From Candidatus Poribacteria bacterium (GTDB lineage: Bacteria; Poribacteria; WGA-4E; WGA-3G), in contig OZ240248.1 in assembly GCA_965198235.1 (NCBI GenBank), forward strand, positions 1,344,001-1,408,000: a stretch of 64,000 bases of DNA. Reading direction: 5' to 3'. The notes beneath the pieces are model-generated. The model searched no databases, was not told where the DNA came from, and worked only from the letters and a program-made list of their open reading frames with translations. The translations under genes and the position numbers were made by a program. Below, in pieces: positions 8,971-32,145 of this stretch; positions within the stretch are counted from its first letter, which is position 1; each line of letters opens with the position of its first letter.

Positions 8971-9756
8971 ATGAAATTGACGATCATCGTAACTGTCTTG
9001 CTCTGTTGCCTGTTCCCGATAGCAACGCCGGCAGAATTGCCCCTTGATGCGCTTGCGATCTATATGTCTTTTGATGACATTCAAGGCAACAAAGTGATAG
9101 ATGGCTCAGAAAACGGAAACGATGGCACGATTATGAAGGCATCCCTTGCGAAAGACAAGGGAAAATACGGCAACGCAATGGAATTCGAAGGCGGAGATAA
9201 CCATGTGCTGATTAAGAGCTCCAAATCGCTCTCGATTGCCGATGAGGTCACAATTTCCGCTTGGGTCAACTGGAACGATGCCCCTGGCAACGGTTGGTTG
9301 ACCGTGATAGCGAACGGAATGCAAGGTGGACCCTGGGAAAACTACGGACTCTTTGTCAACCGTGGGAGTCGCTACTTCTACTTTACGCTCTCTGTCGGTG
9401 GCGAAGGTCAACATAAAGTGATGAATTCTGGGGGCGGTACGACTGAACCTGGAGAGTGGATGCACTGTGTCTGCACCTATGACGGCAAAGATGCCAAAAT
9501 CTATATTGATGGCGATCTGAAAAATGCCGCACCTCATGGAGGCAAATTGGTCGCCGGAGAGCAGGATTTGAGGCTCGGCCACCGAGGGGGCAGCGGCCAC
9601 TGGTATAACGGTTTGCTTGACGAGATCGCAGTATTTTCGGTCGCTTTAGATGAGGATCAGGTTAAAGAAGCGAGTAGCAATATCGAGGAGGCACTTGATG
9701 TTCAGGCGCGTGGAAAACTCGCAACTACTTGGGGTAAAATGAAGGCGGACCCATAG
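8971..9756 (+). CDS. Secreted LamG/concanavalin A-like domain protein
   Basis: Signal peptide; GKYGNAMEF, TISAWV, WMHCVCTYDG, GLLDEIAVF; C-terminal GKLATTWGKMK. Confidence 0.9.
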   Translation: MKLTIIVTVLLCCLFPIATPAELPLDALAIYMSFDDIQGNKVIDGSENGNDGTIMKASLAKDKGKYGNAMEFEGGDNHVLIKSSKSLSIADEVTISAWVNWNDAPGNGWLTVIANGMQGGPWENYGLFVNRGSRYFYFTLSVGGEGQHKVMNSGGGTTEPGEWMHCVCTYDGKDAKIYIDGDLKNAAPHGGKLVAGEQDLRLGHRGGSGHWYNGLLDEIAVFSVALDEDQVKEASSNIEEALDVQARGKLATTWGKMKADP

Positions 9757-9804
9757 GCTAACATCTCAGATGTGCCTTGTCTTTCTTCTATGGAGGCGCA
9801 ACCG

Positions 9805-10581
9805 ATGAAATTACCTATAAGCGCAATTGTCTTGCTCTGTTGCCTGTTACCCACAGCAACACGAGCAGAGTTGCCGATTGATGAACTCGCTCTTTACATG
9901 TCCTTTGATGACATCCAAGGTAACAAAGTTATGGATGGTTCGGAGCATGGGAATCACGGAACAATTATGAAAGCATCCGTCGCGAAAGACAAAGGTAAAT
10001 ACGGCAACGCGATGGAATTCAAAGGCGGGGACAATCACGTCCTGATGAAGAACTCTAAGTCTCTTTCAATATCGGATGAGGTCACAATTTCCGCTTGGGT
10101 GAACTGGAACGATGCGCCTGGAAACGGTTGGTTAACCGTGATGGCAAACGGAACACAAGGTGGACCCTGGGAAAACTACGGTCTCTTTGTCAACCGTGGC
10201 GGTCGCTACTTCTTTTTTACGCTCTCTATAGGTGACGTTGCGGTGATGAATTCTGGCAACGGCTCGACCGAACCTGGAAAATGGACGCACTGTGTCTGTA
10301 CCTATGACGGCAAAGATGCCAAAATCTATGTGGATGGTGATCTGGCAAACACGGCACCTCATGGAGGCAAATTGGTTGCCAGAGATCAGGATTTGAGGCT
10401 CGGCCATCGGTCCGGAAGTGGCCACTGGTACAACGGTTTGCTCGATGAGATTGCAGTGTTTTTGGTCGCTTTAGATGAAGATCAGGTTAAAGAAGCAAGT
10501 AGCAACATTGAGGAGGCACTTGATGTTCAGGCGCGTGGAAAACTCGCAACCGTCTGGGGCAAAGTAAAGGCGGGACAGTAG
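9805..10581 (+). CDS. Secreted LamG domain protein (tandem paralogue)
   Basis: Highly similar to 8971-9756; GGAGG RBS; C-terminal GKLATVWGKVK. Confidence 0.9.
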   Translation: MKLPISAIVLLCCLLPTATRAELPIDELALYMSFDDIQGNKVMDGSEHGNHGTIMKASVAKDKGKYGNAMEFKGGDNHVLMKNSKSLSISDEVTISAWVNWNDAPGNGWLTVMANGTQGGPWENYGLFVNRGGRYFFFTLSIGDVAVMNSGNGSTEPGKWTHCVCTYDGKDAKIYVDGDLANTAPHGGKLVARDQDLRLGHRSGSGHWYNGLLDEIAVFLVALDEDQVKEASSNIEEALDVQARGKLATVWGKVKAGQ

Positions 10582-10614
10582 CCCGGCATCTCAAGGGTTG
10601 TTTGTGTTTCTTGT

Positions 10615-11526
10615 ATGACCATAGTAAGAACAGTTTCTAACCCAAAAAAAGGGCGGGATGGATTCCAACAGAGACCTTCGATACGGTTTCTGCTCCATTT
10701 CGCCCTTGTTTTTATCTACCTTGCCTGCTCCGAAGAGGAAGCATCCGAGCCACCCGAAGGCATGGTGCTGATTCCCGCAGGTGCCTTTCAAATGGGAAGC
10801 ACGACAGGGGATGTCGATGAGGTGCCCGTGCACACGGTGGAACTTGATGCGTTTTACATGGATCCGCATGAAATAACCAACGCTGAATATCAGGCGTTCG
10901 TCGCCGCAACGGATCACCCTACCCCACGAGGGATCGGCTATACCGCCGTCTACGAACTTCTCAAACACGATTACGAACCGTGGGACGACCCCGGTTTCAA
11001 TCACCCAAATCAACCCGTCACAACCGTGACATGGTTTGATGCGACTGCCTACTGCGAATGGGCAGGCAAACGGTTACCAACGGAGGCGGAATGGGAGAAA
11101 GCCGCACGCGGTGGCTTGGAAGGCGCACGCTATCCATGGGGTGACACTGAACCGAATAACACAAGTGCCAACTTTGCTGACAGCCAAACGGAATTTGAAT
11201 GGCGGAGTTCCGATGTAAACGACGGATTCCTTTTTACCGCCCCTGTTGGAACGTTTCCGCCCAACGGTTACGGTTTGTATGATATGGCGGGGAATGTCTG
11301 GGAATGGTGTTCAGATTGGTACAGTCCAACCTACTACAGCGACGTGCAAGGTGCGGAGAGTCCACCCCAGAATCCGAAGGGACCCGACACCGGTGAACGC
11401 CGCGTTTTACGTGGCGGAACATGGTACCGTGCTGTGCACACAATTCGCAATGCCGAACGTATCAGCGATTACCCGGACAGTAGCCTGAACGTTGTCGGTT
11501 TTCGATGCGCCATGGATGCCCCGTAA
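10615..11526 (+). CDS. Formylglycine-generating enzyme (FGE-sulfatase/SUMF1) family lipoprotein
   Basis: MVLIPAGAFQMG, RLPTEAEWEKAARGG, NGYGLYDMAGNVWEWCSDWY, RVLRGG, GFRC; start may lie further downstream. Confidence 0.9.
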   Translation: MTIVRTVSNPKKGRDGFQQRPSIRFLLHFALVFIYLACSEEEASEPPEGMVLIPAGAFQMGSTTGDVDEVPVHTVELDAFYMDPHEITNAEYQAFVAATDHPTPRGIGYTAVYELLKHDYEPWDDPGFNHPNQPVTTVTWFDATAYCEWAGKRLPTEAEWEKAARGGLEGARYPWGDTEPNNTSANFADSQTEFEWRSSDVNDGFLFTAPVGTFPPNGYGLYDMAGNVWEWCSDWYSPTYYSDVQGAESPPQNPKGPDTGERRVLRGGTWYRAVHTIRNAERISDYPDSSLNVVGFRCAMDAP

Positions 11527-11585
11527 GAGGACATGGTGTGCACGTTGGTGTTCCTCGTTCAGGGGTAGGCGATTGGAGGTCTGTT

Positions 11586-12596
11586 GTCAGAACTGTGATT
11601 TTTGTGATTCAGTGATTTACAGGATGGGAGATGCCTATCGAGTGAAAATTGTCCTTTGTAGAATTACCGAAATATAGTAAAGCCCGAAAATATGTAGACA
11701 GTCGTTCAGCAAACAAACCCACCACCGCTGGCGAGGGTGTTTTTGATAGGGGTGTTTTTGCTTGGGTATTTCTGCGGATTTCAACAAGGTTTTTCATGCA
11801 CTTTCCCACCCCATAGGGGTGATATGTCTATAGAAAACGGTGTATTAAAGCGACTGCACCCCGTAGGGGTGCTATGTCTATAAATAGGTGGCAACTTGCG
11901 TTATAATAACGTGAGCTTGATAAAAAGTCTTGTAGGTGTTTTTGCTTGGGGTTTTTGATAAGGTGTTTCTGCGGATTTCCCCCAGGTTGAACGGGAATCA
12001 AGTAAAACGTGGATAGAAAAGACACCGATCAAGTTCAGTAGGAAACCTGAAGCCACTAAAGAACGAGTGAAACCCAACACTTTTTACTTCCAACACGATG
12101 CGTCTGTTGGGTTTCGCTATATCTCTCTCTATCAACGATTCGCAGAAAGGCGTAATTTCCTGTATAAACGCAAGGGGCTTTACCGCTCAACCCAACCTAC
12201 GGAAACCATATTCAGATTTTTAATTATCAAACTCACATTATAATATGTAAAATCATAGCAAATTTCGACGCATCTGTCAAATTGTACCGCAAACTTTCGT
12301 TTGCGCCCTGAAACCGTCAATGTCCCTAACCCCGTCTCTTCCTAACAAAAACCGTCGATAAACAGAAACCCCAAAAATCCGCGTAATCCGCACAATCCGC
12401 GCCAATCCGCGATTTGCGGCGTACTCGCCCAAATGCGACGTGCATTCAGACAATTCCCCAATCATAAAAATCACTAAATCACAATAATCACAGTTCAGAC
12501 TTCTTCCACTGCCCACTGCTCGCTGACTGCTCTTTGTAGGAGCGACCTCCCGGTCGCGATTCCCCTGTTCGTAGTAGTGCGATTTATCGCACGTTC
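11586..12596. repeat. Intergenic mosaic of repeat families (AATCACAGA-type repeats, partial MITE, REP-like units)
   Basis: cagaactgtgatt..(11586) and ..aatcacagttcagac (~12500); MITE right half 11780-11903; aacccaac/gttggg REP 12060-12201; REP doublet 12535-12596. Confidence 0.75.
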
Positions 12597-12605
12597 TCCA
12601 ATTAC

Positions 12606-14930
12606 TTATCGCAATGTTTTCAACTGTCCCCATGTGGATATCTCCTTACCAGCAGCACCGACATGCCCTTTCAGGCGGATGCCACGGGTCAAGGTCTGAT
12701 GATTCCCGTCAAGAGAGACCTCCTCTATCTGGTAGTAGTAGACGACGTTGGGTTGAGCAGTTGTATCCGTGTAGGTATAGAACTGCTTCTCGCTGGTCGT
12801 GCCTGCGCCAGGGACCATGGTTGCGTTGATGACCTTGAACTGTCCGTCTCGTTGCTGACTCCGCTTGATAAAGAATCCAGCGTTGTTCAACTCCGATTGC
12901 GTAGACCAAGTAATCACCACTGCGCCAGTCGCCTTATCACGGGCAGGACGGAAGTGCGAAAGCTCGACGGGCAACGCACCACCAGCACGGAATCCGGGTG
13001 TGCCGACATCAATCGGTAAGCCGTAGTAACTGCGTGCGCTCAGATGCATCTGTTGTGCGAAACTCGTATCAGAGGCGAGCACCCAAGAATCCATCAGCGT
13101 GCCGTCTTTCGGTTCCGCGGGACCCACAGAAACGGGAACGTGTCTACGGATAATCGAGCTACGTGCACCATCTTCGTCTATCGGTAGTGCCCACATCGCA
13201 GTGCCATCCTCAGAAACCAGGTTGCCAACCACATCCATTGCCGCGGCGCGAGCGGCTGCCTGTCCAATAAATACAGCCGTAACCGGCGGTGCAAGCGTTA
13301 TTTTGAACGCCGTCCCGCTCATCAACGAATAACGGCGTTTGGAAATACCCAACAGAATCAGTTCATACAGTTGATCCGTCCAGAGATTGACGACCTGACC
13401 GTCTGCCAGCCAGCCGTCAAGGTTATTACGTCCCTGTGCGGTGACAACGAGAACGGTTGACGGGGTATCGTGCTGTCCACTCGGATCAATCTTTGTGCCT
13501 TCCGGGATCGTGAATACCGCCTTCGCACCGATACTCACATCGACATCAGCAGCGTCGTTCTCGACTGTCAGCGTCCAACCACCCAGGTTCACCTGCTCTG
13601 TCCGGGAACCGTTGGAAATCTCAATCCACTGTGGCAATCTGCCACCCCCAGCGAACATAATCTCGCTGATGTAGATTTGACCTTCCTCCGGTATCATCAC
13701 GGAAGCATCTGCGGCTGTCGCATCGGCATCAGCAGTCGCCTTTTCCGCAGCTGCGGAGTCTATGCCGGAGCCAGCCTTATCTTTGACAGGAATGTCGTGT
13801 CCAGCTGTGCTGTTCGCATCAGTGATCTTTACATCATCGTCGTGTGGCAGGGATAGCGTAACCCCTGTTCCGGGTGGCATCGTGGTTGTCGCTACCGCAA
13901 GTCTGAGTTGCTCACGCCCGTTCGGCTTGTTCGCTACACCGAACGGCTTATACACATTCACGAATGGGGAAGCACCATCATGGAACTCCTTGAGACTGAT
14001 CTTCACCGTATCCACTCTGCGATGCGGCGTAATCGTCACACGGTACTGATGATACATATTATCCGTGCCAGTGGGCATAGGAACGTTCATAGCATCCGCA
14101 CCTGGTGCCACACCGGCCAAACCATCATCGGCCTCTCCACTGTGCACGTACATTCCCTCAGACGGATGCGGCAGAATCGTCGAATCCGCATCTCCCTGTG
14201 CATTCGCTCGTCGTGCGAAGGGGACACCTACGACCAAGTTGCTGGCTGTTCCACCTTCAACGTTAATCTTATCAAGTGTCAGACCGCCGTCAGGTTTCTC
14301 GGTGAGCACAATCCGCACGTCAAAGGCACCCGTAACTTTCTCCTCTTGGAAAGCACTGACGACCGCTTGGCTACTCGGGCGCAACCGCTGGATGGAAACC
14401 ACGTTCGGGCGATCAGTATTTACCGGTATGGGACCCATTAAATTAAACGACAGGGAACCCTCTTTACTCGTCTGCTCTTCATTAGGAGTAAGACGTTTGA
14501 CACCCGCTTTTATGTACAGATGAACTTTTCTGTCATCTGCATCAGTGCTGGCGGCAGCAATAGTAAACGCGAAGGTTTTCCTATCCGTTTGAACTCCACC
14601 AACGGCAGCATTGATGTCCTTTATGCTAATTTCTGATGTCGATCCAGCACCCGCTTGCCCGGTGCCATCAGTTGTTGCTGGAACAGCAAGAGCAGTTCGA
14701 ACACCGTTCTTATCTTCAACGTGAACAATGATAAACGCCCTCTCAGCAGTTGTAAGTGCTACTTCCTCAGCAAATGTAAGCGTAACGACGATATCTGTGC
14801 CGTATTGCTTGTTAATAACGCTAAATGTGGCATCGAAGTCATCAGCCGCCATCGCGGAAGGCACCACGAAAGCAAGAACAAATATTGTGATTAAACGCAT
14901 TAACGAAAATGCCATTTTCTTTGACAACAT
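12606..14930 (-). CDS. Secreted lamin-tail-like-domain surface protein, paralogue A (774 aa; apparently promoterless)
   Basis: Signal peptide MLSKKMAFSL..VPSAMA; IYISEIMF..QWIEISN..VNLGGWTL (LTD-like); C-terminal LPVELSHF..WSTQSELNNAGF..TWGQLK. Confidence 0.85.
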   Translation of the reverse strand: MLSKKMAFSLMRLITIFVLAFVVPSAMAADDFDATFSVINKQYGTDIVVTLTFAEEVALTTAERAFIIVHVEDKNGVRTALAVPATTDGTGQAGAGSTSEISIKDINAAVGGVQTDRKTFAFTIAAASTDADDRKVHLYIKAGVKRLTPNEEQTSKEGSLSFNLMGPIPVNTDRPNVVSIQRLRPSSQAVVSAFQEEKVTGAFDVRIVLTEKPDGGLTLDKINVEGGTASNLVVGVPFARRANAQGDADSTILPHPSEGMYVHSGEADDGLAGVAPGADAMNVPMPTGTDNMYHQYRVTITPHRRVDTVKISLKEFHDGASPFVNVYKPFGVANKPNGREQLRLAVATTTMPPGTGVTLSLPHDDDVKITDANSTAGHDIPVKDKAGSGIDSAAAEKATADADATAADASVMIPEEGQIYISEIMFAGGGRLPQWIEISNGSRTEQVNLGGWTLTVENDAADVDVSIGAKAVFTIPEGTKIDPSGQHDTPSTVLVVTAQGRNNLDGWLADGQVVNLWTDQLYELILLGISKRRYSLMSGTAFKITLAPPVTAVFIGQAAARAAAMDVVGNLVSEDGTAMWALPIDEDGARSSIIRRHVPVSVGPAEPKDGTLMDSWVLASDTSFAQQMHLSARSYYGLPIDVGTPGFRAGGALPVELSHFRPARDKATGAVVITWSTQSELNNAGFFIKRSQQRDGQFKVINATMVPGAGTTSEKQFYTYTDTTAQPNVVYYYQIEEVSLDGNHQTLTRGIRLKGHVGAAGKEISTWGQLKTLR

Positions 14931-15067
14931 TCGTTTAATCCCCCCGTGACCCTCTTCTGTAGGAGCGACCTCCTGGTCGCGATCTTCTGTTCGTAGTAGT
15001 GCGATTCATCGCACGTTCCCAAATCACAGTTCAGACAATTACTGACAACCGATAACTAACAACTACT

Positions 15068-15109
15068 AAAAAACAAAACGGGGTAATGTCGCTAAGGACA
15101 CTACCCCGT
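15068..15109 (-). terminator. Rho-independent terminator of paralogue B
   Basis: Minus strand acggggtagtgtc-cttagc-gacattaccccgt followed by tttgtttttt. Confidence 0.8.
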
Positions 15110-15171
15110 CTTGTGGTTAAGGTTAGTTCAAACAAATTTTATCCCTGAAATAACCTTGTTGTTCCTACTAC

Positions 15172-18100
15172 TTATTGCGATGTCTTCAATTCTCCCCACG
15201 TCAGCGTGGCTTTACCGGCGACACTCACATGCCCTTTCAGGCGCATGCCGCGGGTCAGCGTCTGACGATTACCATCGAGAGATACATCTTCAATCTGGTA
15301 GTAGTATACGACGTTGGGTTGAGCAGTTGTATCCGTGTAGGTATAGAACTGCTTTTCACTCGTTGTGCCTGCACCAGCGATCATTGCCGCGTTGATGACT
15401 TTGAACTCGCCGTCTTTTTGCTGACTCCGCTTGATGAAGAATCCAGCGTTGTTCAGCTCAGATTGCGTAGACCAGGTAATCACCACTGCGCCAGTCGCCT
15501 TATCACGGGCAGGACGGAAATGTGAAAGTTCAACAGGCAACGCACCACCAGGACGGAATCCGGGTGTGCCGACATCGCTTTGTGCGCCGTAGTAACTCGC
15601 GGCACGGATGTGCGTCGGTTGCGCGAAACTCGTATCGGATGCGAGTGCCCAATTCATCATCATCGTGCCATCTTCGGGTTCCGCAGCACCGACAGAGACT
15701 TGGACGTGTCCACGAATAATCGAGCTACGTCCGTCCTCACTCATCGGCAATGCCCATGCGGCAGCACCATCAGCACCGAGGTTACCCACGATATCCGTCG
15801 CTTCTGCGCGTTCCTTCGCGGCTTTGGCATCAGCGGCGGCCTTGGCGGCTGCAGCTGCGCGCGCGGCTGCGATTTCGGCTGCCGTTGTTGGCGCGGCTGC
15901 TTTCTTCGCTGGAGCTTCAATCGGCACCGGGGGGGCGAGCGTTATTTTGAACGCCATACCGCTCAACAACGAATAGCGAGGTTTCAGAACACCTGCTATG
16001 ATCAGGTCAATCTCGGTCGTAGACCCTGGTTGATTCAGGACCATAACCTGACTCCTTGCCTTCGCGCCCGTAAGGTTGTTACGTCCTCTTTCGGTCACGA
16101 GGAGCAGCGTTGACGGGGTATCGTCCTGTCCACTCATATCGATCTTCGTGCCTTTCGGGATCTCGAAAGTTACTGAACCGACACTCACATCGGTATCGGC
16201 TGCAGCGTTATCGACCGTCAGCGTCCAACCGCTCAGGTCGACCTCTTCTGACCGCGAACCGTTGGAGATCTCAATCCACTGTGGGAGCGTCCCACCGCCA
16301 GCGAACATAATTTCGCTGATGTAGATTTTACCGACCATCGGCATCGAGACAGAAGTATCTGCTGCTTTTGCGGCTGTTGCGGCTGCGGCAGCAGCTTTCG
16401 CTTTTGCTGCTGCTACTATAGCTGCGGCTTCAGAAGGACTAATGACACGTGTGGAACCCGGTGAAGCATCGTATTTACCTTCAAGACCTAACTTGAAGTT
16501 GACGCTTGGCGATGTCGACTGCATCCAACTACCTGCTACCGTACCGTTTGCGGGCATCATCGCGCCTGCTGCTGCACCTACTGTTGTATCTGCCACCATC
16601 CCACGATACATAGAAGCAAGCTGCTGTATCGGTGCGATTGCAGCGACATCTGCGGTACCTGCGTCAACCCCAGATCTTCCACTCTGACCTTTACCGGCGA
16701 TTGACCAGTAAATATCCGCTGTGGTCCCTGTTGTTGCGGGTGCGATAACGGTTCCAGCAAATGTTTTCGTACCGACCCGGTCAACGAGCACACCCGCTGT
16801 GCCATCATCCTTCACGTATGTCGCACGAGGGGTCTCGTTCGCTTGATAGAACCACAACGCCCATTTATTTTCACCAATCTCAATAGCGGCTGTGGTCGCA
16901 TTGGCAATCTCAATCCATTGGCTGTTTGTGGCATCAGCGGTTTGGCTGGCATCGGTGCCCCACATCACTTCACTGATATAGGCGGCTCCCGCTGCTGTGC
17001 CATCGTATGCCACGAGGTCAATCGTGCCATTATTGGCGAGGAACGTCTCTAAGTTCGGCAGACTCCCCGATGCCCTGACATTGTATAACAATTGGGCAGG
17101 CGTCTGCTTATGGGGGACATTCTCTACTTTCGTCTTATCCGCCGCATCTACCTCGTCCGAGAAATCTATGCCGGAACCAGCCTTATCCTTCGTAAGGATG
17201 TAGTGCCCAGCCGTGTCCGCGTAAGTGATCATTGCAGCTTCGCCGTGCGGCAGGTAAAACATAAACCCTGCACCGAGTGCAGCAAGGTCTGTCGCTACGG
17301 CGAGTCTGAGTTGCTCACGCCCGTTCGGCTTGTTCGCTACATTAAAAGGCTTATACACATTCGGAAACGGTACAGCATTATCATGGAATTCCTTGATACT
17401 GATTTTCACCATATCCACTCTGCGATGTGGCGTAATCGTCACACGATACTGATGATACATACTATCAGGACCCGTAGTCAGCGGGACAAATGTGTGATCG
17501 GTAAGACTTGGTGAACTCACCTCACCTAGCGCACCAACTAAAGCGTCGTCACCATCGTGAGCATACATACCCTCAATTGGATGGGGTCTATACGTGCTTG
17601 CCAACTGATCAGCGGTAGGCTCATCAGCGAGCGTATCTCCGAGCCGCGAGAAGGGCACACCTACGACCAAGTTGCTGGCTGTTCCACCGTCAACCTCAAT
17701 GTGAGCAAGTTTAAATTCATGCGGCAACTCGGTGAACACGATCTTAACGTCAAAGGCACCCGTAACTTTTTCCTCTTGGAAAGCAGAGACGACTGTTTGG
17801 CTACCCGGACGCAACCGTTGGATAGAAACCACGTTCGGACGATCAGTATTTACCGGTATGGGACCGATCAAATCAATACTCGCTGAAGCCTTTTTGCTCG
17901 TCTTCGCTTCCTCAGGGACAAAACGGGCAACACCTGCTGGTATGAACAGATGAATTTTTCTGTCATCCATATCAGTGCTTTCGGCATCAATAGTAAACAC
18001 GAACTGTTTTCTATCCGTTTGATCGCCGGTAACAGCAAGGTTGATGTCCTTCGCGCTAATTTCTGATGTTGATGTAGCACTAGCATCTGGCGGGTTGTCA

Positions 18101-18381
18101 CCAACTGCTGTAATTGTTGTGGGGACAGTGATAGCAGTTCGAACACCGTTCTTATCTTCAATATGAACGGTAATTATCCTTGTCTCTGCCTCCTGTATAT
18201 TTGCAAGCGGTACTTCCTCTTTAAAAGTAATCGTAACCTCGATATCTGTGGCATAGGTTGTATTAACAACGCTAAATTCGGCATCGAAGTCGTCAGCCGC
18301 TATCGCAGAAGGCACCACGAAAGCAAGAGCGAGAATTGTTATTAGACTCATTAACGAAAATGCCATTTTCTTTGACAACAT
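15172..18381 (-). CDS. Secreted lamin-tail-like-domain surface protein, paralogue B (1069 aa; faces the promoter)
   Basis: Same N- and C-termini as A and C; two LTD-like modules (YISEVMWG..QWIEIAN; IYISEIMF..QWIEISN); Ala/Lys-rich linkers. Confidence 0.85.
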   Translation of the reverse strand: MLSKKMAFSLMSLITILALAFVVPSAIAADDFDAEFSVVNTTYATDIEVTITFKEEVPLANIQEAETRIITVHIEDKNGVRTAITVPTTITAVGDNPPDASATSTSEISAKDINLAVTGDQTDRKQFVFTIDAESTDMDDRKIHLFIPAGVARFVPEEAKTSKKASASIDLIGPIPVNTDRPNVVSIQRLRPGSQTVVSAFQEEKVTGAFDVKIVFTELPHEFKLAHIEVDGGTASNLVVGVPFSRLGDTLADEPTADQLASTYRPHPIEGMYAHDGDDALVGALGEVSSPSLTDHTFVPLTTGPDSMYHQYRVTITPHRRVDMVKISIKEFHDNAVPFPNVYKPFNVANKPNGREQLRLAVATDLAALGAGFMFYLPHGEAAMITYADTAGHYILTKDKAGSGIDFSDEVDAADKTKVENVPHKQTPAQLLYNVRASGSLPNLETFLANNGTIDLVAYDGTAAGAAYISEVMWGTDASQTADATNSQWIEIANATTAAIEIGENKWALWFYQANETPRATYVKDDGTAGVLVDRVGTKTFAGTVIAPATTGTTADIYWSIAGKGQSGRSGVDAGTADVAAIAPIQQLASMYRGMVADTTVGAAAGAMMPANGTVAGSWMQSTSPSVNFKLGLEGKYDASPGSTRVISPSEAAAIVAAAKAKAAAAAATAAKAADTSVSMPMVGKIYISEIMFAGGGTLPQWIEISNGSRSEEVDLSGWTLTVDNAAADTDVSVGSVTFEIPKGTKIDMSGQDDTPSTLLLVTERGRNNLTGAKARSQVMVLNQPGSTTEIDLIIAGVLKPRYSLLSGMAFKITLAPPVPIEAPAKKAAAPTTAAEIAAARAAAAAKAAADAKAAKERAEATDIVGNLGADGAAAWALPMSEDGRSSIIRGHVQVSVGAAEPEDGTMMMNWALASDTSFAQPTHIRAASYYGAQSDVGTPGFRPGGALPVELSHFRPARDKATGAVVITWSTQSELNNAGFFIKRSQQKDGEFKVINAAMIAGAGTTSEKQFYTYTDTTAQPNVVYYYQIEDVSLDGNRQTLTRGMRLKGHVSVAGKATLTWGELKTSQ

Positions 18382-18556
18382 TCGTTCAATCTCCTTGTTC
18401 TTATGGAATAAAATTTTAAACTTAAACCTAAAACCTCACGGAAGGGAAAAAATGGAAAAGTAATCTTTTTCATGTCTTGCCTCCGCTTATGTACAAAATA
18501 AGAACGGATCCAGGGATTGTAAACCCATTCCTCATTTGAACCTAACCTTTTGCACA
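18308..18556 (-). repeat. Left arm of ~250-bp inverted repeat (leader + signal-peptide codons of B)
   Basis: Reverse complement of 20346-20592; only a few differences in the ~175-nt leader. Confidence 0.95.
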
Positions 18557-18695
18557 TAATGTAACTTACACATTATGTGCTGTTTTCAAGGGTTGCTAAT
18601 CGATGCGGCTCTAAGAGTGACTCTTAATGTGTGAAAACATCGCGTTTCAACTCATAATGTGCCAAAATATCGCGTTTCAACCCTTTACACAGTTA

Positions 18696-18724
18696 ATTCT
18701 ACCCTATTAAACGCTATTTGTCAA
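18696..18724 (-). promoter_or_regulatory. Strong sigma70 promoter directed at paralogue B, inside the inter-repeat segment
   Basis: Minus strand TTGACA-17 nt-TAGAAT; A/T tracts upstream (18725-18810), UP-element-like. Confidence 0.8.
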
Positions 18725-19372
18725 ATTAAAATTACAAAAAAACGCACTTTTTTGCGAAAAAACGCATAATTCGTCAAAAAAAGTGCGAAATTCGCAAAAA
18801 AAGTGTAAAATGGAGTATTGGTTGTCGTCAGAACTGTGATTTTTCTGATTTACTGAGTGGAAGAAGTCAGAACTGTGATTTCTGTGATTTCTGGGATGTG
18901 CCGTGATTGGGAAATTTTCAGAACTGTGATTTGTGGGATTTCTGGGATGTGCCGTGATGTAGAAAACGGTGTATCTAAGCAACCCCACCCCGTAGGGGTG
19001 CTATGTCTATAGAAAACGGTGTATCCAACCAAACGCACCCCGTAGGGGTGCTATGTCTATAAATAAGTGGCAACCTGCGTTACATTAATATATATTAAAG
19101 GAACCGAAGGTGGGGTATTATCTACAGCAGTTTCGTAGCGGAAACCCTCATCACAGAAATCACATCATCAGAAAAATCACAGTTCAGACAGCGGTTTTGC
19201 GGATAAGGCGGGTTAGAGGGGGGAGGTGCTGATAACGCCTGTCTTCTGTAGGAGCGACCTCCTGGTCGCGATCCACCTGTTTGTAGTAGTGCGATTCATC
19301 GCACGTTCTTATGCACCCCTGTCCCCCTGATAAGGGGGATTGAGAGGGTTGGGGGGTTACTGACCCCTACTA

Positions 19373-19491
19373 ACAAAAGCAGATAACGGGAGAGTTCCCT
19401 ATACTCCCCCGCTACCCTTTTAGTTTAATCAAATGGAGGAGATTAGTGTCGTCCTCAGGACAGGTTAAGTTTAGCCTCATTCCAGGAGGTT
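19373..19491 (-). ncRNA. Candidate small RNA (or 22-aa small ORF transcript)
   Basis: Between promoter 19499-19527 and hairpin gcgggggagt/actctcccgt + U-rich tail; contains anti-SD-like CCTCCT and CTCCTCC. Confidence 0.4.
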
Positions 19492-19498
19492 AACCTTA

Positions 19499-19527
19499 AT
19501 TATCCAATTTCTACGGAAAAATGTCAA
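19499..19527 (-). promoter_or_regulatory. Putative sigma70 promoter of the candidate sRNA
   Basis: Minus strand TTGACA-17 nt-GATAAT. Confidence 0.6.
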
Positions 19528-19766
19528 GGGGCAAGTCTTGTGCCTTCAGGGCTATTTAGTTTTAGGTGCTTTATCCAATTGAGCCGAAAAGTCGCGAGCG
19601 GGAGCTCGTTTCCCCAGGTCTTGTGCCTGCGCACCCAAGAACCATTGTAGGGGGTTTTTGCTTGGGGATTTCCCCAGGTCTTGTGCCTGCCCGTTCCCTT
19701 GTGCCTGCCCTATATACAGTATATATAAGGAGCACACCATATATACCTACATATAAGGAGCATACC

Positions 19767-20183
19767 ATGTCAAACGAAATCTATCTCTCCGTCGCCCAAG
19801 CCGCCGATCTACTGGGCATCTCGCAAGAAACCCTCTACAAAGAAATTCAATCTGGGAACCTTACCGCGACAGAGAACCCGGACCAAAAACGGAAGCATAA
19901 AGTCATCGCCGTCAGCGAACTCTCGCGCCTCTACGGTAAGATATGCATCCCTGACGGGTATCTCGAATACTCCGGGGATAAGTCAGTTGATTTTGTGAGG
20001 GTTGCGCTCCGACAAGAGAATGAGAGGCTCCGTAAGGCGTTGGAAGAGACCCAGAATCGCGAGCGGAATCTCAATGAGCAGCTCAAGACCGCACTTCAAA
20101 ACCACAAAACGCTTATCGAGACCCACGCAGATCTCACCAAAACCATCGATAATTTAACCACTGTGCTGGATAAAATGACCTAA
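19767..20183 (+). CDS. Excisionase/MerR-like winged-HTH DNA-binding protein with C-terminal coiled coil
   Basis: YLSVAQAADLLGISQETLYKEIQSGNL (HTH_17-like); heptad tail LRQENERLRKALEE; AAGGAG RBS before ATG 19767. Confidence 0.8.
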   Translation: MSNEIYLSVAQAADLLGISQETLYKEIQSGNLTATENPDQKRKHKVIAVSELSRLYGKICIPDGYLEYSGDKSVDFVRVALRQENERLRKALEETQNRERNLNEQLKTALQNHKTLIETHADLTKTIDNLTTVLDKMT

Positions 20184-20345
20184 ATTCTTTCTTGTTTGTA
20201 AAACACCTGCTATTTTACAGAGAATCCCTCCGGAATTACAATTTTTTGAAATACCTCCCGGCCCTCCCTCGTCTCGGTAGGCGCGGTTTGTAACTGGAAG
20301 CCTCACACTTCCGATTCTCGCCGCTCCTGGCCGAATTTAACCTTT

Positions 20346-20592
20346 TGTGCAAAAGGTTAGGTTCAAATGAGGAATGGGTTACAATCCCTGGATCCGTTCT
20401 TATTTGTACATAGACGGAGGCAAGACATGAAAAAGATTACTTTTCCATTTTTTCCCTTCCGTGAGGTTTTAGGTTTAAGTTTAAAATTTTATTCCATAAG
20501 AACAAGGAGATTAAACGAATGTTGTCAAAGAAAATGGCATTTTCGTTAACAAGTCTAATAACAATTTTTGCGCTTGCCTTCGTGGTGCCTTC
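20346..20592 (+). repeat. Right arm of ~250-bp inverted repeat (leader + signal-peptide codons of C)
   Basis: tgtgcaaaaggttaggttcaaatgagg...aaggagattaaacgaATGttgtcaaagaaaatggcattttcgttaa matches 18556-18308 reversed. Confidence 0.95.
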
Positions 20593-23500
20593 CGCAATGG
20601 CAGTGGATTTTGAGGTCACGATTGAGGGGCAGCGAGTGGTGACTTATCCAACAGGTCAAGAAGCCACAGCGCTTGATCCTATTCTACTGACAGTTACGTC
20701 CGAAGAGGCTCTTCCTGACCCTCTTATGGTAGGGGAGGATACCGATGAAAATGGTCTTACTGATCACGCAAATGATATCCTCGGAAACATAACTGTCACC
20801 ACTCGTGATGAAAGGGGTTTCGAAAAAGTTTTCATTACTGTTGAATCAGGTGATGATGCTCATAGTAGTATTGCTACAGGTGTTACAGTAGTAGACGACC
20901 CTGTAGATACTTTTGCTGATAGATCAGTGAAACTGCGTCAGTTACGTGTTACCATCACACCGGGTGCAGCTCCCACAACCCTCGAGCGGGTCACGATAAC
21001 AATACCTGCCTTTGAGACGCCTGATGTTCGTGTCGATGATCTTCACGATTGGAGCCTCGGGGCGTCACACACGATCCTCGTTAGAGATGTAGCGGATGTT
21101 GAGCTTGATGAGGATGACGCACAAGTGGTATCAATCCAGCGGTTGCGTCCGGGGAGCCAAACGGCAGTTGCGGCCTTCCAAGATCAGGAAATTAGTCCCG
21201 ATCCTTTTGATATTCGGGTCGTGCTCACCGAGTCGCGTTTTAACCGGATAGATTATATTGAGAAGACCCCGGATGAGCTTGCGGAGGAACTCATTGAGGT
21301 TGACGGCGGGGAAGTCAGTGACTTGAGAAGAGGTGTCCCTTTTGAAATTCGCAGAGTAACTGCTGCTACAGAATCTACGACTTTCAAACCGCATCCGAAT
21401 GAGGGGAGGTACGAGAATACTGGTATAGATGATGCACTCCCAGGACTGGAACCTATGGAGACTGTCCCGGAGCCCACGGGTCTTGATAATATGTATCATG
21501 AGTACCGTGTGACGGTTACGCCCCAGAGACGGCAAGGTCCTTACACCTTGACGCTCAGCGTGAAGGGATTCGGGAGTTATGCCCCGTTTCTCATAGGTGA
21601 AAAACCCAACGGTCGTGAGCAACTCAGGGTTCCCGTAAGGATGGATCCGAGAGACCGCACGGCTGGCATTCGGATAATTGTGGGGCACGATATCGTCGTT
21701 CCTAAAAATGGCTACTTGATCATCGCGACGGACTGGTGGCAGTCTCAAATCGTAATACCGCGGGGTAGGATAGACAAATCACCGAGGGCGATTGACCGGC
21801 AACCCGCTCAAATGATTTACAACCTTATCGACCACGGCGGTCTCCCGAACCTCGCAACCCAATTCTACAACGGTGTTGTGATTGATGTAGAGAGTTCAAA
21901 CGACTTGGTTATCTCTGAGGTGATGTGGGGTGAAGATGCAAGTTTGACTGAACCTGCACGCAGCCAATGGATCGAGTTGTATAACCCTGGTGATGAATTT
22001 AAGACGCCAGAGGATGATGCGGCTACGTATGACATTGATGAACGCCTCACGCTCGTTATCTATAGAGCGAACGAGTTCAGTGATATTCCGGCAAAGGTGG
22101 CAGTAGCGGCAACGGCGACTGCGCCCGCTACTATGGCATTGCCAGATAGAGTTACCGATCGGATCGGAACGCTCGATGCGACTGGGAAATACTGGTCACC
22201 CGCAACCAAAGGTCAAAGCGGTCGGAGCGGTCTTCCTATCGAGAGATTTGGAGAACTCGTAGACGTCGAAGTCATACCGACTATTGGGACAGGAGATGTT
22301 ACGCCCATCGTTTCGATGTATCGGGTGATGGAACCAGATACCTCAACAGATGCGGCAATCGGTGCGATGAAACCTGTCGACGGTCAAATGGCCGCGAGTT
22401 GGATGTCCTCTCAGCAGCCAAGGTCTGCGAACTTTCGTCCGCATGCGATTGGTCTCCGACACGGCACACCGGGTGCGACAACGGATGCTACCGATACACC
22501 GGCAGATACCGAAGCTGAAGCAAAAGCTAAAGCGGATAAGGAAAAAGCCGATGCGGATAAGATCGCCGGCACTGGGACGATTCCGAAAGCGGGTCAAATC
22601 TACATCAGCGAAGTTATGTTCGCTGGCGGTGGCACACTGCCGCAGTGGATTGAGATCGCCAACGGTTCTCGGGCAGAAGAAGTCAACCTGAGCGGTTGGA
22701 CGATTACGGTGGATAACGCCGCTGCGGATGCCGATGTGAGTATCGGTGCTTCAGCGACGTTCACGATCCCCAAAGGCACGACGATCGATATGAGTGGTCA
22801 GGACGATACACCCTCAACGATACTCGTTGTCACTGAAAAGGGACGTAACAGCTTTAGTGGTCCGAAAGCAGCGAGTCAGGTCATTGTCCTGGATGAACCG
22901 GGCTCAATGACTGAAATCGACCTGATTCTGGCAGGTGTTACGAAGGGCAAATACACATTGCTCAGCGGCATGGCGTTCCAGATAACGCTCGCACCGCCGG
23001 AACCAGAGGTGGATGAAACGGCAGCTGAGAAGACAGCGCGGTTAACCGCTGAGAAGGCTGAAACGGTAGCTGCGAAGACAACACGGCAAGCCGCTGAAGC
23101 GAGAGCCGCAGCGGAACGTAAAAGGGCAACGGATACGGTCGGTAACCTCGGTGCTGACGGTGCTGCTGCATGGGTATTGCCGATGAGCGAGGAAGGCGGT
23201 CGTAGTTCGATTATCCGCAGACACGTTCAGGTCGCTCGAGGTCCCTCAGCACCCGAAGACGGCACGATGATGGACAATTGGGTGCTTGCATCCGATACGA
23301 GTTTCGCACAAGTCACGCATATTCGTGCGCAGAGCTTCTACGGTGCGGCGAACGATGTCGGCACCCCCGGATTCCGTCCTGGTGGTGCATTGCCTGTAGA
23401 ACTTTCACACTTCCGTCCTGCGCGTGATAAGGCGACTGGCGCAGTGATGATTACATGGTCGACCCAATCAGAGTTGAACAACGCTGGATTCTTTATCAAG

Positions 23501-23761
23501 CGGAGTAATCAACCTGACAGCGAGTTCAAAATCATCAACGCGGCAATGATTCCTGGCGCAGGCACAATCAGTGAGAAGCAGTTCTATACATTTACGGATA
23601 CAACTGCGCAACCCAACGTCGTATACTACTACCAGATTGAAGATGTATCTCTTGACGGAAACCGTCAACAATTGACCCGTGGCATCCGCCTGAAAGGGCA
23701 TGTGAGTGTCGCTGGGAAAGCCACGCTGACGTGGGGAGAATTGAAGACGTCTCATGAGTAG
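20519..23761 (+). CDS. Secreted lamin-tail-like-domain surface protein, paralogue C (1080 aa)
   Basis: Same signal peptide and C-terminal ~150 aa as B; divergent N-terminal half; two LTD-like modules. Confidence 0.85.
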   Translation: MLSKKMAFSLTSLITIFALAFVVPSAMAVDFEVTIEGQRVVTYPTGQEATALDPILLTVTSEEALPDPLMVGEDTDENGLTDHANDILGNITVTTRDERGFEKVFITVESGDDAHSSIATGVTVVDDPVDTFADRSVKLRQLRVTITPGAAPTTLERVTITIPAFETPDVRVDDLHDWSLGASHTILVRDVADVELDEDDAQVVSIQRLRPGSQTAVAAFQDQEISPDPFDIRVVLTESRFNRIDYIEKTPDELAEELIEVDGGEVSDLRRGVPFEIRRVTAATESTTFKPHPNEGRYENTGIDDALPGLEPMETVPEPTGLDNMYHEYRVTVTPQRRQGPYTLTLSVKGFGSYAPFLIGEKPNGREQLRVPVRMDPRDRTAGIRIIVGHDIVVPKNGYLIIATDWWQSQIVIPRGRIDKSPRAIDRQPAQMIYNLIDHGGLPNLATQFYNGVVIDVESSNDLVISEVMWGEDASLTEPARSQWIELYNPGDEFKTPEDDAATYDIDERLTLVIYRANEFSDIPAKVAVAATATAPATMALPDRVTDRIGTLDATGKYWSPATKGQSGRSGLPIERFGELVDVEVIPTIGTGDVTPIVSMYRVMEPDTSTDAAIGAMKPVDGQMAASWMSSQQPRSANFRPHAIGLRHGTPGATTDATDTPADTEAEAKAKADKEKADADKIAGTGTIPKAGQIYISEVMFAGGGTLPQWIEIANGSRAEEVNLSGWTITVDNAAADADVSIGASATFTIPKGTTIDMSGQDDTPSTILVVTEKGRNSFSGPKAASQVIVLDEPGSMTEIDLILAGVTKGKYTLLSGMAFQITLAPPEPEVDETAAEKTARLTAEKAETVAAKTTRQAAEARAAAERKRATDTVGNLGADGAAAWVLPMSEEGGRSSIIRRHVQVARGPSAPEDGTMMDNWVLASDTSFAQVTHIRAQSFYGAANDVGTPGFRPGGALPVELSHFRPARDKATGAVMITWSTQSELNNAGFFIKRSNQPDSEFKIINAAMIPGAGTISEKQFYTFTDTTAQPNVVYYYQIEDVSLDGNRQQLTRGIRLKGHVSVAGKATLTWGELKTSHE

Positions 23762-23819
23762 TAGCAACAACAAGGTTATTTCAGGGATAAAATTTGTTTG
23801 AACTAACCTTAACCACAAG

Positions 23820-23858
23820 ACAGGGTAGTGTGCTACGGTGCATTGCCCTGTTTTGTTT
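23820..23858 (+). terminator. Rho-independent terminator of paralogue C
   Basis: acagggtagtgtgc-tacg-gtgcattgccctgt + tttgttt; homologous to the terminator of B. Confidence 0.8.
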
Positions 23859-24383
23859 ACAGACAACTCTATAAAAACGTTCATTGTTCGCGAAATATCG
23901 TAGTGCAACCTTTGTGAACACTAAAAAAAATTAATTCGGTGATGTGGGGTGTAAATCGTCTGAAGTCGGATTCATTGTGATTTAGAGATATACCCAATCA
24001 CAAAAATCACTGAATCATAAGAATCATAGTTCTGACAATTGCCCACAACCGCCCCTATTTCAAAATCACCAATAGCACACTATAGATTAAATCGGCAATT
24101 TGGCGCGGTTAGGACACCTCAACATAACGGGCTACATCCGCTCCGTTCGGACAGGAAATGCTGAGCTCCCACCCCACAGCAGGGGACTGTAGAACAAGAT
24201 CAAGGTAAACGCATCTTTTTTCAATATAAAGGCTGTCGGCAGTCAGGGCGTTCGCTGACGCTCACTTTCAGCAATCGGAAACCTTCAGTTAGCGTTCTGA
24301 TGGAAACCGATGGAAACCGACATCCAAAATTCTGACGGCTGACGGCTGATAGCCGACGGCTATAAATTGAGGTATATTTTTTC

Positions 24384-27300
24384 ATGAACACTTTAACCAC
24401 ACGACAAATTGTCCTTGGACTGCTGATGACGCTCGTGCTGGCGTTCAGCGTGCCGGGTATTGTAGACGCACAGAGCGTGTCGGTCAGCGGTGATGGGTCT
24501 ACTACGAGTACAAGTAGTGGAACTACAGTTATAACGGATTACCGAACTACGCCCGCCGTGGAGCGCTCTTTCACTATTACAGTAAGTAAAGCGGAAAATG
24601 GTGAAGTTATTACTATCAGAGGTAGTTCTGATGTTACTATCAACGAGATAAAGAAAGAAGATAAGTTAACTAACGAGACGGGAAGTGTTACTGGCGAGGG
24701 ATCAGGGGTGGTTACCATTACTGTTAATGCACCTAATGTTGGTGCTGACCGAGATCTCAATGGTGATAATGATAAAAACGATATAGTCACCTCTTTCTTG
24801 GAGAGTAATTTAGATGAGGATCTCAATAATGATGGTGACAAAGTTGATACATTCGGCTCAATCTCGGAGAGTGATTTAAATGCGGATCTCAATGGTGATG
24901 GTGACCAAACTGATACACTCAGTTCGGTAAAGGAATATCTAGAAGACCCAAACTGGGAGTCGGGATCTGTCACGATCACGGTGGATTACACTGTCACTGA
25001 ATTCGGGAGATATACGGTGACGGTGACAGCTAATGAAATTGATACCGATATATCGGGTTCTCCGATCACGGCTTACGTTGTCCGAAGCGACACCCTTGCG
25101 AGGGGTACCAGCATTGCTACGGGGTCAACCACAACTCCTGTGTTAAGAACAAGTAGTGTTAGTTTCACGATAGCTCCAGCTACTCAGTGGACCCGAGTGG
25201 ATTTGAAGGTCACCGGTGGGAAACTCTATTTGGACAGTGGTCGGTATTTGAGTAGTAACAAACTCTTTGACGTTACGCAAAGGAAAGAGTTCACCAGCCT
25301 TTCCATGTTTACAGGCGCGGGTGGTTCTCTCACCGTGAACCTTATACAAGATAGCGGGAAGGTTGCTAAAATTACTGCGACAATTCCGGGTTCCAACGCA
25401 CGAGGAAAAACGTATACCGTTACCTCTTTCGCCAGTGCCATTACAGTAGAGCAGGTATCCGGCAATCATCAGTTCGGATACACGAACCAAGGGGCAAACT
25501 ACGGCTCTTGGGAAAAGCTGCAAAATGCGCTTGTTGTTCGCGTAGTAGATGGACACCAAACTAACAACAACGTTGAGGGACAATGGGTTACGTTTACTAC
25601 GACTGGCACATCACGTTTGCGAGCTACCTCCCGCGCCAACCTCTGGCCTGGTGCCGATGGTACTATAACTGCTGCAGATGATAACCAGAGCCCCTTAACA
25701 GTGAAGACGGATGGCAGCGGCAGGGCGCAGGTTTACTTGCTACCAGGGACTACCCCTGCTACTTATACAGTAACCTACGCCGTGGTGTCTCAAGAGTCTC
25801 CTACGGCGTTGGGGACGGCTCTTACCGGAGCTGCTGCAAGTAGTCAGAGTCGAGGTGCCATTAATGAACAGTTCACGGCGACTGCAATTCTGGATCCTGG
25901 TGATACTCGCGAGCATGTAATTAATAGAAGTGAGTCTACGCCAACACCTGAAATACGTCGTGCCCAAGGCGACACAGAGATGATAGTCGATGTTGAAAAC
26001 AGTGGTGGAACTGATGCGCAGAATGTTCAAGTCGATTTTTCAGTCTCCGGTGGACGGCTCACGCTGACGCCGGGCTCGAACTATCAGACCTCGCTCTCCA
26101 CGGTCACCGATAGTGGGGGCGATGCCAGGGTTTGGGTCCAAGCAACTGGTAATTCTGTTGCCATAGTTACGGCTCGGATCGCTGGGAACAATGAAGATGC
26201 TGGAAGATATGTTGTTACCTTTCTCCGCACTGGTGCTTACATCGAGTATGTGTCGGGTGATGACCAGGACGGTGCTATCGGTGGAAGACTGGAAAATCCC
26301 CTTGTCGTTAAAGTGTTAGATGGCAGAGGCGGTAGTGCTATGCCGAACCAGATCGTTAGGTTTAATGTGACTGCCGATGATACCAATGACCATAATAGTA
26401 ACCGACGACAGTTTATTCCGGTCCCTGACACATACGTGTTTGTGACAGCAGCTAATACGGATATATTCGACGAGATTGGGGCTGACATGCCAGACGCTAC
26501 GAGTGTCCCACGTTTAGCTAACGCACTCCGACCCATTCGTGGGAGTAATGGCACTGGCCAGAACATCTTTATCCAAACCGATTCCAATGGCGAGGCTAAA
26601 GTTTACCTCCGATTAGGGAGTGCGGATGATACGGGTACCTCCGACACAGTGGAAACGGTGGATGCCGCGAGATTTAATGCCTTCAAAGTCCACCGGGTCA
26701 CGGCTACAACGCCAGATGGGGCTCCCAATGTGGGGGTCCGTTTTAGAGCCGATGCCGTGGATGATGCAAGACAAGCGAAGTTAGAGATTGTCTCAGGGGA
26801 TAGGCAGAGTGCCGAAAAAGGCGATCCTCTTGCGGATCCCTTGGTTGTTCGGGTGCGAACTGTGCGGGGATTTCTGATCCAAGGCATACTCCTGGAGTTC
26901 ACTGCCCTCGATGGTACCCTTCTCACGGATCCTGACCACGATACCGTCCTTGTTTCTGAGAGCGGAGGTGGTAACCAAATACGGGTCAGAACAGGTCCTG
27001 ACGGTGAAGCCCGGGTTGACTACAATGTGGGTCAACTGAGAATTGCGAGGGATGTCACAGTAGAGGTTGTAGAGGAACAAGGTACCCTTCAATACGACTT
27101 CGCGATTGATGAGGTAAGATTTGGTGTCAACGGTGGGCAAGGCACTGGCACAGGTGGAGGCACACGTCAACCGCCACCGCCACGAACGCCAACGAATACG
27201 ATCACGATTACGCTGTCGAGTAGGACGGGCGAGCCGGGTGACGAGATAGATGTTGAGGTTGATTCATCTCCGAGGGGTGTATTGGTCACTATAGACAGTG

Positions 27301-31935: not shown

Positions 31936-32145
31936 TCAAAAAAGGTGTGCAGCCTGAAACGAAGTGGAAGGGTTTTTGCTTGGGCGTTTCCCCTTGCTTG
32001 GGGTTTTTGCTTGGGGTTTTTGCTTGGGGTTTTTGCTTGGGTGTTTCTGTGGATTTCTGCGGATTTCTGTGGATTTCTTCAACTCCGCATCAGATACCGT
32101 GAAATCCCAAATCCGCGTTGTTTAACCGCAAGGAAAATTAAAAAA

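Follow-up and report, generated by a model that had tools for sequence, protein, structure and literature searches.

Does the one strong promoter that lies between two divergent, paralogous genes for secreted lamin tail domain (LTD) proteins serve one of them permanently, or can it be turned toward the other by inversion of the segment that carries it? The question is raised by a stretch of 64,000 nucleotides, here called the window (C1:1.344-1.408 Mb), which is part of a 5.17-Mb, two-contig genome of Candidatus Poribacteria (G000; G numbers denote the genomes compared, and L numbers the loci). Poribacteria are abundant, uncultivated symbionts of sponges, and their persistence beside phagocytic host cells and phages is an open question. 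The window holds three LTD genes, A, B and C. B and C diverge on either side of a segment that is bounded by inverted repeats (the "arms") and carries the strong promoter, P, directed at B. Sequence comparisons argue well for recombination between the arms. That the locus is an inversion switch driven by homologous recombination, with the P cassette flipping between B and C, is an explanation to which we give about even odds (a probability near 0.5).

The inverted arms and the cassette they enclose

A sequence-only reading of this DNA had placed three LTD genes here, and open reading frames were found at those positions, all scoring above the Pfam cut-off for LTD (PF00932, 34.3 bits). Paralogue A (12606-14930, minus strand; 774 aa, 39.7 bits), paralogue B (15172-18381, minus strand; 1069 aa, 51.1 bits) and paralogue C (20519-23761, plus strand; 1080 aa, 57.8 bits) each encode a secreted LTD-domain protein. 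B and C lie head to head; as assembled, P faces B and points away from C. The B and C proteins are 48% identical over their full length, and the products of all three genes consist of a signal peptide, a variable N-terminal region of 400-680 residues and a conserved C-terminal region of about 390 residues (65-72% identical). A fourth paralogue, D, is distant (contig position 106 kb); the signal peptide and parts of the leader are common to A, B, C and D.

Near-identical inverted repeats had been proposed at 18308-18556 and 20346-20592. The repeats are real, and only these limits had to be revised, being a few bases too narrow on each side. By gapped alignment the arms (18299-18562 and 20340-20601) are 93.9% identical over 264 nt, with 14 mismatches, two gaps and a longest perfect run of 98 bp. 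A repeat search returns them as three blocks, 18299-18497/20403-20601 (199 nt, 94%), 18496-18525/20376-20405 (97%) and 18522-18562/20340-20380 (95%). Together they cover the upstream regions and the first ~83 coding bases of B and C.

Comparison of about 40 loci was used to define modules within this leader. The left arm, which is the leader of B (18299-18565, minus strand), is made up of mod2 (18299-18436), mid (18437-18494) and mod1 (18495-18565), all on the minus strand; the right arm, the leader of C (20340-20601, plus strand), is its inverted copy, with mod1, mid, mod2 and signal-peptide codons. Mod2 contains the ribosome-binding site (RBS), start codon and signal peptide, and mod1 a conserved box, a wobble-rich hairpin and a U-run. 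Mod1 and mod2 are 80-90% conserved between species, single-gene loci included. The mid piece, which contains an upstream open reading frame (ORF) of 40 codons, is absent or different in most other genomes (it was found in G049, G033 and G089), and in the two G000 arms it is 96.6% identical. The upstream ORF, at 20428-20550 (plus strand) and 18350-18472 (minus strand), has a strong GGAGG site and runs, in another frame, over the LTD start codon.

The hairpin of mod1 has 10 pairs, and the changes seen across 31 aligned copies preserve pairing, mostly on one side; the loop varies in length by 3 nt, which makes it a poor fit to a promoter spacer. Sigma-70-like hexamers within mod1 (18523-18495, scoring 9/12) were considered as a promoter and rejected, as they are not conserved and the spacing of the invariant parts shifts by 3 nt. 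Since these hexamers are not conserved, the arms look like transcribed leader and not like promoters, and a search of the arms for conserved sigma-70 hexamers of their own found none. A fuzzy motif search located mod1 three times in the genome, at B, C and D. No Rfam family was matched at the arms, at P or at the small RNA candidate described below.

The promoter itself had been predicted from the sequence as TTGACA-17-TAGAAT (18724-18696). It was recovered by a promoter scan with a score of 11/12, inside the segment, outside the arms and aimed at B. The region designated P (18566-18834, minus strand) comprises A/T tracts, TTGACA (18724-18719), the 17-nt spacer, TAGAAT (18701-18696) and a conserved box after the -10. 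When 17 upstream units from 15 genomes were aligned, TTGACA was present in 16 and TAnAAT in all 17, at fixed spacing and with the upstream A/T tracts conserved. By fuzzy motif search the complete P core occurs once in the whole genome, facing B; D keeps the -10, not the -35. Between P and mod1, 10 of the 17 units carry a small helix-turn-helix (HTH) ORF, of which B's unit has only a remnant (18576-18632). At locus D this ORF occupies C1:106060-106281 (73 aa, with a weak HTH_23 match below the Pfam cut-off), and it may be transcribed together with the LTD genes and regulate them. The normal unit of the LTD family is P, often the small HTH ORF, mod1, mod2 and the LTD gene.

The segment between the arms (18563-20339, 1.78 kb) contains, in order, P, about 550 nt of dispersed repeats, a small-RNA-like gene, an HTH_17 gene and a second promoter-like site, P2. 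The dispersed repeats (18823-19378, no strand assigned) are small, belong to families D7-D10 and are not specific to the locus; two of them gave 39 and 65 BLAST matches in the genome. Such intergenic repeat families also occur at 11582-12600, 14957-15019 and 23992-24038, and the depth of the DNA runs over the bins of all four regions is 10-100 times that of neighbouring bins.

The candidate small RNA gene (19381-19527, minus strand) would give a transcript of about 110 nt (19492-19381) from a predicted promoter, TTGACA-17-GATAAT at 19527-19499 (11/12), ending in a terminator hairpin at 19417-19381 in which compensatory changes are seen. It is single-copy in the genome and adjoins P in most related loci, and in its consensus fold 5 of 27 pairs are compensatory. 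A conserved unpaired stretch containing CUCCUCC resembles an anti-Shine-Dalgarno sequence. Pairing with the LTD RBS was evaluated and set aside as background: the energies obtained, -15.0 to -17.6 kcal/mol, are equalled by 5-16% of 400 random windows.

The HTH_17 gene (19767-20183, plus strand), on which the sequence-only reading is silent, is divergent from P and has the same orientation as C. It encodes 138 aa with an excisionase-type DNA-binding domain and a coiled-coil tail (Pfam HTH_17, 31.5 bits against a cut-off of 27; NCBIfam excisionase-family domain, 27.8, below the cut-off of 28.8), and copies 75-87% identical are found beside P in 11 other loci. Searches of Pfam and NCBIfam revealed no catalytic domain in the protein; it is not a recombinase, and its sequence makes a regulator more likely.

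The sequence-only reading had seen no comparable promoter upstream of C. That part did not hold, as the scan returns P2 (20214-20242, plus strand; TTTACA-17-TACAAT, 10/12) between the HTH gene and C's arm, inside the segment and aimed at C. Both P2 hexamers are kept in G105, G089, G108, G035 and G097, among them loci with no LTD gene downstream. P2 may act as a true, weak promoter of C, or it may belong to the 3' end of the HTH gene.

Arm exchange and cassette orientation among related genomes

The leader is present in 29 of the 101 family genomes sampled; by genus, and with the window's own genome left aside, the counts are 27/53, 1/40 and zero in four small genera. P and mod1 occur together in 43 of the 65 genomes of the genus. 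Five genomes (G000, G079, G102, G105 and G108) have the arrangement in complete form, two LTD genes with inverted arms and one P between them, and G089 has it in part; in all five the LTD partner without P is a full-length open frame. LTD loci also lie on small separate contigs of 47-145 kb in several long-read assemblies (G071, G077, G031 and G049).

Arm pairs within these genomes are 94% identical in G000 (264 nt) and G105 (234 nt), 99.4% in G108 (322 nt), 84% in G102 (328 nt), and 88% and 85% in G079 (86 and 98 nt). Arm pairs compared across genomes are mostly 80-90% identical (range 68-94%). Because arms of 94-99% identity stand beside proteins that are 48-60% identical, repeated exchange between the inverted copies is indicated in three of the five genomes, and recombination between the arms is well supported. 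Where an exchange between inverted arms is resolved as a crossover, the segment inverts. The G108 segment reaches 4.7 kb because it contains two ORFs, of 384 and 398 aa (L033 9462-10616, plus strand, and 11519-12715, minus strand), which, from a reading of their sequences, we take to be IS605 TnpB-like and IS630-like.

In two further genomes a second arm has no gene behind it. At the LTD loci of G081 and of G021 (L023) the inverted repeat is reduced to the ~65 nt of mod1. In G081 the two 68-nt copies of mod1 differ by one indel, and P points away from the only LTD gene; at G021 L023, P points at the LTD gene. G021 has five LTD loci (L023, L029, L035, L036 and L037), with P facing the gene in one and facing away in four. 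Each of those four has an intact LTD gene from which a block of P and the small ORF is directed away, the block ending in a ~30-nt part of mod1; as they have one common junction and look like segmental duplicates, they probably count as one event. Scans of G081 L022 and G021 L029 gave 11 or 12 of 12 for P, and no site of at least 10/12 facing the LTD gene.

The orientation of the cassette can be compared where the surroundings are the same. The LTD island of the window is flanked by an FGE-type sulfatase-maturation gene and a sulfatase gene (window 9772-11526 and 31945-33513), the latter single-copy and present in 64 of the 65 genomes of the genus. An LTD island at this FGE/sulfatase site was found only in G000, G079, G081, G035, G029 and G057. 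The comparison of the locus across related genomes, envisaged as a check in the sequence-only reading, placed the P block in opposite orientations in species that have these flanks in common: P faces the FGE gene in G000, G035, G029 and G057, whereas in G079 and G081 it faces the sulfatase gene. Both flanks are collinear between G079 and G057, yet their blocks of P and the small RNA are inverted relative to each other. The single LTD gene of G057 is closer to the FGE-side gene of G079 (74.6% in the middle part, 84.5% in the 3' part) than to the other G079 gene (70.3% and 78%). In a second pair, G097 and G108, the P units match at 96%, yet their orientation to the adjoining LTD gene is reversed; the 3' part of this gene in G097 matches one paralogue of G108 at 86% and the other at 80%. 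A history of the genus with at least one inversion bounded by the arms, probably two, would agree with these comparisons, without being proved by them. Use of paralogue orthology between G000 and G079 to separate a flip of the segment only from a flip of the whole island was attempted and failed, as the paralogues are closest within each genome.

An inversion switch weighed against its alternatives

In the mechanism proposed here, the arms would recombine by general (RecA-type) homologous recombination. Non-crossover events would keep the arms alike, and crossovers would flip the 1.78-kb cassette with P, the small-RNA-like gene and the HTH_17 gene. With the cassette as assembled, P would drive B, and after a flip it would drive C, leaving the gene on the far side with the weak P2 or with read-through from the HTH gene; cells of one population would then differ in their dominant surface protein. 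The arms are 264 nt long and contain a perfect run of 98 bp, which makes general homologous recombination the simplest agent. Flipping in populations, an effect on expression and RecA as the agent are steps that we infer.

Sequencing runs were examined over 12400-24100 as Logan contigs, two of them DNA (X1 and X4) and two RNA (X7 and X8, bulk sponge metatranscriptomes of one study); public runs containing the window stretch include sponge metatranscriptomes. Logan contigs are built from 31-mers and cannot cross a repeat with a 98-bp perfect run. There was no strand change at an arm among 15 of the 33 contig joints, and 31-mer contigs are uninformative on inversion. An opposite-strand joint at 12460/19150 was rejected because it sits in dispersed repeats, and a joint skipping 19567-20275 (X1 and X4) was distrusted because its shorter side is only 20 letters. 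Contigs from the Joint Genome Institute (JGI) metagenomes, scanned with a 20-nt word from the middle of the arm, yielded two stretches, neither related to the locus.

Both B and C are represented in bulk RNA although P faces only B, so that the mutually exclusive expression suggested in the sequence-only reading gains no support from these runs. RNA contigs of X7 lie on B-specific parts (e.g., 15439-16279 and 17342-17842) and on C (21472-23421), and those of X8 likewise (B, e.g., 16339-16867 and 17795-18066; C, 21763-23419). This fits a population of mixed orientation as well as it fits independent promoters. RNA depth is near zero over the bin of the HTH gene (19829-20219) and over most A-specific bins (13182-14745), values that in contigs are not usable as evidence.

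Several observations weigh against a switch, and most of them are also what would be expected if B and C were static divergent paralogues, B transcribed from P and C from P2 or the HTH gene, with inversions as rare accidents that have no regulatory role. On this account, to which we assign an appreciable but less than even probability, the likeness of the arms would reflect a functional 5' leader RNA (mod1 hairpin and RBS) with the signal peptide, plus occasional gene conversion. Part of the arm identity is functional constraint, since the leader modules are 80-90% conserved across species, also at single-gene loci, and the arms of G102 and G079 show no excess of identity over cross-genome pairs. 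The picture of a single promoter is qualified by P2, a weaker site facing C whose hexamers are conserved. RNA from both B and C, found in both RNA runs, needs no inversion because C has this promoter-like site of its own; and if P2 is a promoter, a flip would exchange a strong for a weak promoter and would not be a full on/off change. Nor is lack of P proof of silence, because G071 and one other genome retain A-type genes, placed in tandem after B-type genes, that have neither P nor mod1. Both orientations within one population were not seen; no listed 31-mer contig bridges an arm, and none could. Genome searches with PF00239 and PF00589 placed no gene for a serine or tyrosine recombinase within the locus or close to it.

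The comparison between species has its own weak points. Each genome's paralogues resemble one another more than they resemble any gene from a different genome, which makes orthology soft, and it is possible that the difference in orientation between species came from a multi-step history or from inversion of the whole island. None of 40 further genomes has the island between the FGE and sulfatase genes: the 19 kb before the sulfatase gene contain no LTD gene, arm or full P, with a weak match to the P core in one genome. The FGE gene lies within ~3.5 kb of the sulfatase gene in 12 of these 40.

Other findings are harder to reconcile with static paralogues. The mid piece is nearly the same in the two G000 arms and yet is absent or different in most other genomes, and the 94-99% arm identity in three of five genomes, beside proteins so much less alike, needs frequent exchange. 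P2 is equally kept where no LTD gene lies downstream, so it may belong to the 3' end of the HTH gene. Intact LTD genes with P pointing away are found in G081 and at four G021 loci, and the two of these that were scanned have no good promoter facing the gene. Finally, the P block differs in orientation between species that have the same flanks. Taken with the conservation of P, the recurring layout and the intact partners that lack P, the likeness of the arms and the differences in orientation speak for an invertible promoter cassette.

A different kind of inversion, which we consider quite unlikely, would be a site-specific inverton in which the first ~30-70 nt of the leader (the mod1 box) are the target of a trans-acting recombinase that works at several LTD loci. 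In Bacteroides, a global invertase flips promoters at several loci. The reduced loci speak for such an arrangement, as the inverted repeat in G081 and at G021 L023 is mod1 only with no gene behind the second copy, and at four G021 loci the block of P and the small ORF lies between mod1 and the partial mod1. The outer edge of the arms also falls at the same motif in all genomes, and the primary sequence of mod1 is more conserved than a plain hairpin requires. However, a candidate invertase did not emerge. The sole resolvase-family gene of the genome (the one PF00239 match, C1:4.80 Mb) has a MerR-type HTH at its N-terminus and resembles an IS607-type transposase. The two PF00589 matches are small tyrosine recombinases at 2.97 and 3.48 Mb, which is 1.6 and 2.1 Mb from the locus, and box-like words near their genes were dismissed as chance, one being inside a coding region and the other a 14/17 match. 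The arms of G000, G105 and G108 (234-322 nt) are far above typical invertase sites, the four G021 loci represent one event by their common junction, and the wobble pairs of mod1 fit a role in sense-strand RNA.

A broader version of the idea holds that mod1 is the crossover site of promoter cassettes that are movable throughout the genus and control the LTD multigene family, one paralogue per cell; this seems unlikely. The cassette would consist of P, the small HTH ORF, the small RNA and the HTH_17 gene, and would be flipped by a trans-acting recombinase or by RecA. Cassettes of this kind, if real, would be the first phase-variation system described in this uncultivated sponge-symbiont phylum and may serve evasion of host phagocytosis or phages.

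A mis-join in the long-read assembly is a very improbable source of the inverted leader copies or of the segment's orientation. Nothing was found for such an artefact, although none of the DNA-run contigs listed reaches across a whole arm. The head-to-head layout was assembled independently in four other genomes, and because two of these cases are short stand-alone contigs from other projects (8991 and 6260 nt over their whole length), it is not an artefact of the window genome. A DNA contig of X4, which comes from another study, spans 19805-20375 and confirms the junction between the segment and C's arm.

For paralogue A, the sequence-only reading had placed the gene behind B's terminator with ~10 nt of leader left, and had suggested that crossover with its 5' coding region could activate it. 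A strong terminator-like hairpin of 18 pairs with a T-run is there (15114-15073, minus strand) after B, and the leader remnant before the ATG is nearer 13 nt. These RBS-proximal bases and signal-peptide codons make up the 96 nt (88.5% identical) that A has in common with the arm. A copy of the hairpin follows C at 23754-23858 (105 nt, 90% identical to that after B). The suggested route of activation is weak. The 5' homology of A is a direct repeat of B's, so that crossover there would delete and not invert, and with C there is only a 103-nt inverted repeat of 86% identity. Activation of A in a single step is unlikely. The best full-length relative of A is the tandem downstream gene of G071 (50%).

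Neighbouring genes, significance and known inversion systems

Downstream of C, a plus-strand gene (24384-29591) encodes a protein of 1735 aa with immunoglobulin (Ig)-like and dockerin features and a C-terminal sorting domain of the type IX secretion system (T9SS) type, by Pfam and NCBIfam. This Ig-like/dockerin protein is a conserved downstream neighbour of LTD genes in many Poribacteria loci (L026-L029, L035-L039, L046 and L048), and the LTD proteins may work together with it. Just upstream of the FGE gene are two tandem Laminin_G_3 (concanavalin-like) genes (8971-9756 and 9772-10581, plus strand) whose products are 83% identical, and at 3410-7660 (plus strand) a 1416-aa protein has BNR/Asp-box, YCF48-like and sortilin-type repeats. 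Concerning the LTD proteins themselves, searches of Pfam and NCBIfam for S-layer families gave no match. A structure predicted for the conserved C-terminal 400 residues from an alignment of 17 sequences has a mean predicted local distance difference test score (pLDDT) of 53.6, with the last 150 residues below 50. A protein-atlas look-up with residues 930-1080 of an LTD protein returned only unnamed clusters at 0.80-0.81, the level of shuffled controls.

A reversible switch of variable secreted surface proteins would, if true, give a concrete mechanism for the persistence of Poribacteria, and a positive answer would make this the first phase-variable surface system in the phylum. Full-text literature searches never linked Poribacteria with lamin tail domains and found Poribacteria together with phase variation only in an unrelated review; in a broader full-text search the word Poribacteria was absent among the matches listed. 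The locus also yields a conserved promoter, a leader element and a small RNA candidate for a phylum without genetic tools.

Among known systems, the sap locus of Campylobacter fetus is the closest analogue. Dworkin and Blaser reportedly described, in 1996-97, a recA-dependent inversion of a single promoter between opposed sapA homologues that switches the S-layer. As in that system, paralogous genes for secreted surface proteins have a common conserved 5' block, one strong promoter is located on the segment between oppositely oriented paralogues, and there is no adjacent dedicated invertase, an absence that agrees with homologous recombination. The systems differ in several ways. The proteins here are LTD proteins, unrelated to Sap, with the conserved part C-terminal and the variable part N-terminal. 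The conserved block is an untranslated leader plus signal peptide (264 nt), whereas that of sap is about 600 bp of coding sequence. An HTH gene and a small-RNA-like gene are further parts of the segment here, no more than two genes are placed for inversion, and inversion is a prediction.

Promoters between inverted repeats are also known from systems with dedicated enzymes. The Bacteroides capsular polysaccharide loci, fimS of Escherichia coli and hin of Salmonella invert at short repeats, tens of bp long, by means of serine or tyrosine invertases dedicated to the task. The G081 and G021 repeats of ~65 nt with one gene resemble an ON/OFF inverton of this kind. The window differs in having arms of 264 nt, as against short repeats of ~10-40 bp, and in offering no nearby invertase candidate. 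Such invertible promoters, or invertons, have been described (e.g., PMC10403206 and PMC11602134).

The next closest precedent is the slpA/slpB pair of Lactobacillus acidophilus. The promoter of that pair reportedly stays put, outside the inverted segment. According to a review, inversion moves the silent gene to the promoter, and that gene occupies the expression site in only 0.3% of chromosomes in culture (PMC3666127), a frequency so low that such a switch can be hard to see. The likeness is that two opposed, paralogous surface-protein genes are swapped at one expression site by inversion; unlike slpA/slpB, the Poribacteria locus would flip the promoter cassette between fixed genes, in another phylum and another protein family. 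The locus is thus new for its lineage and for its protein family, and the principle itself is one already known from these bacteria.

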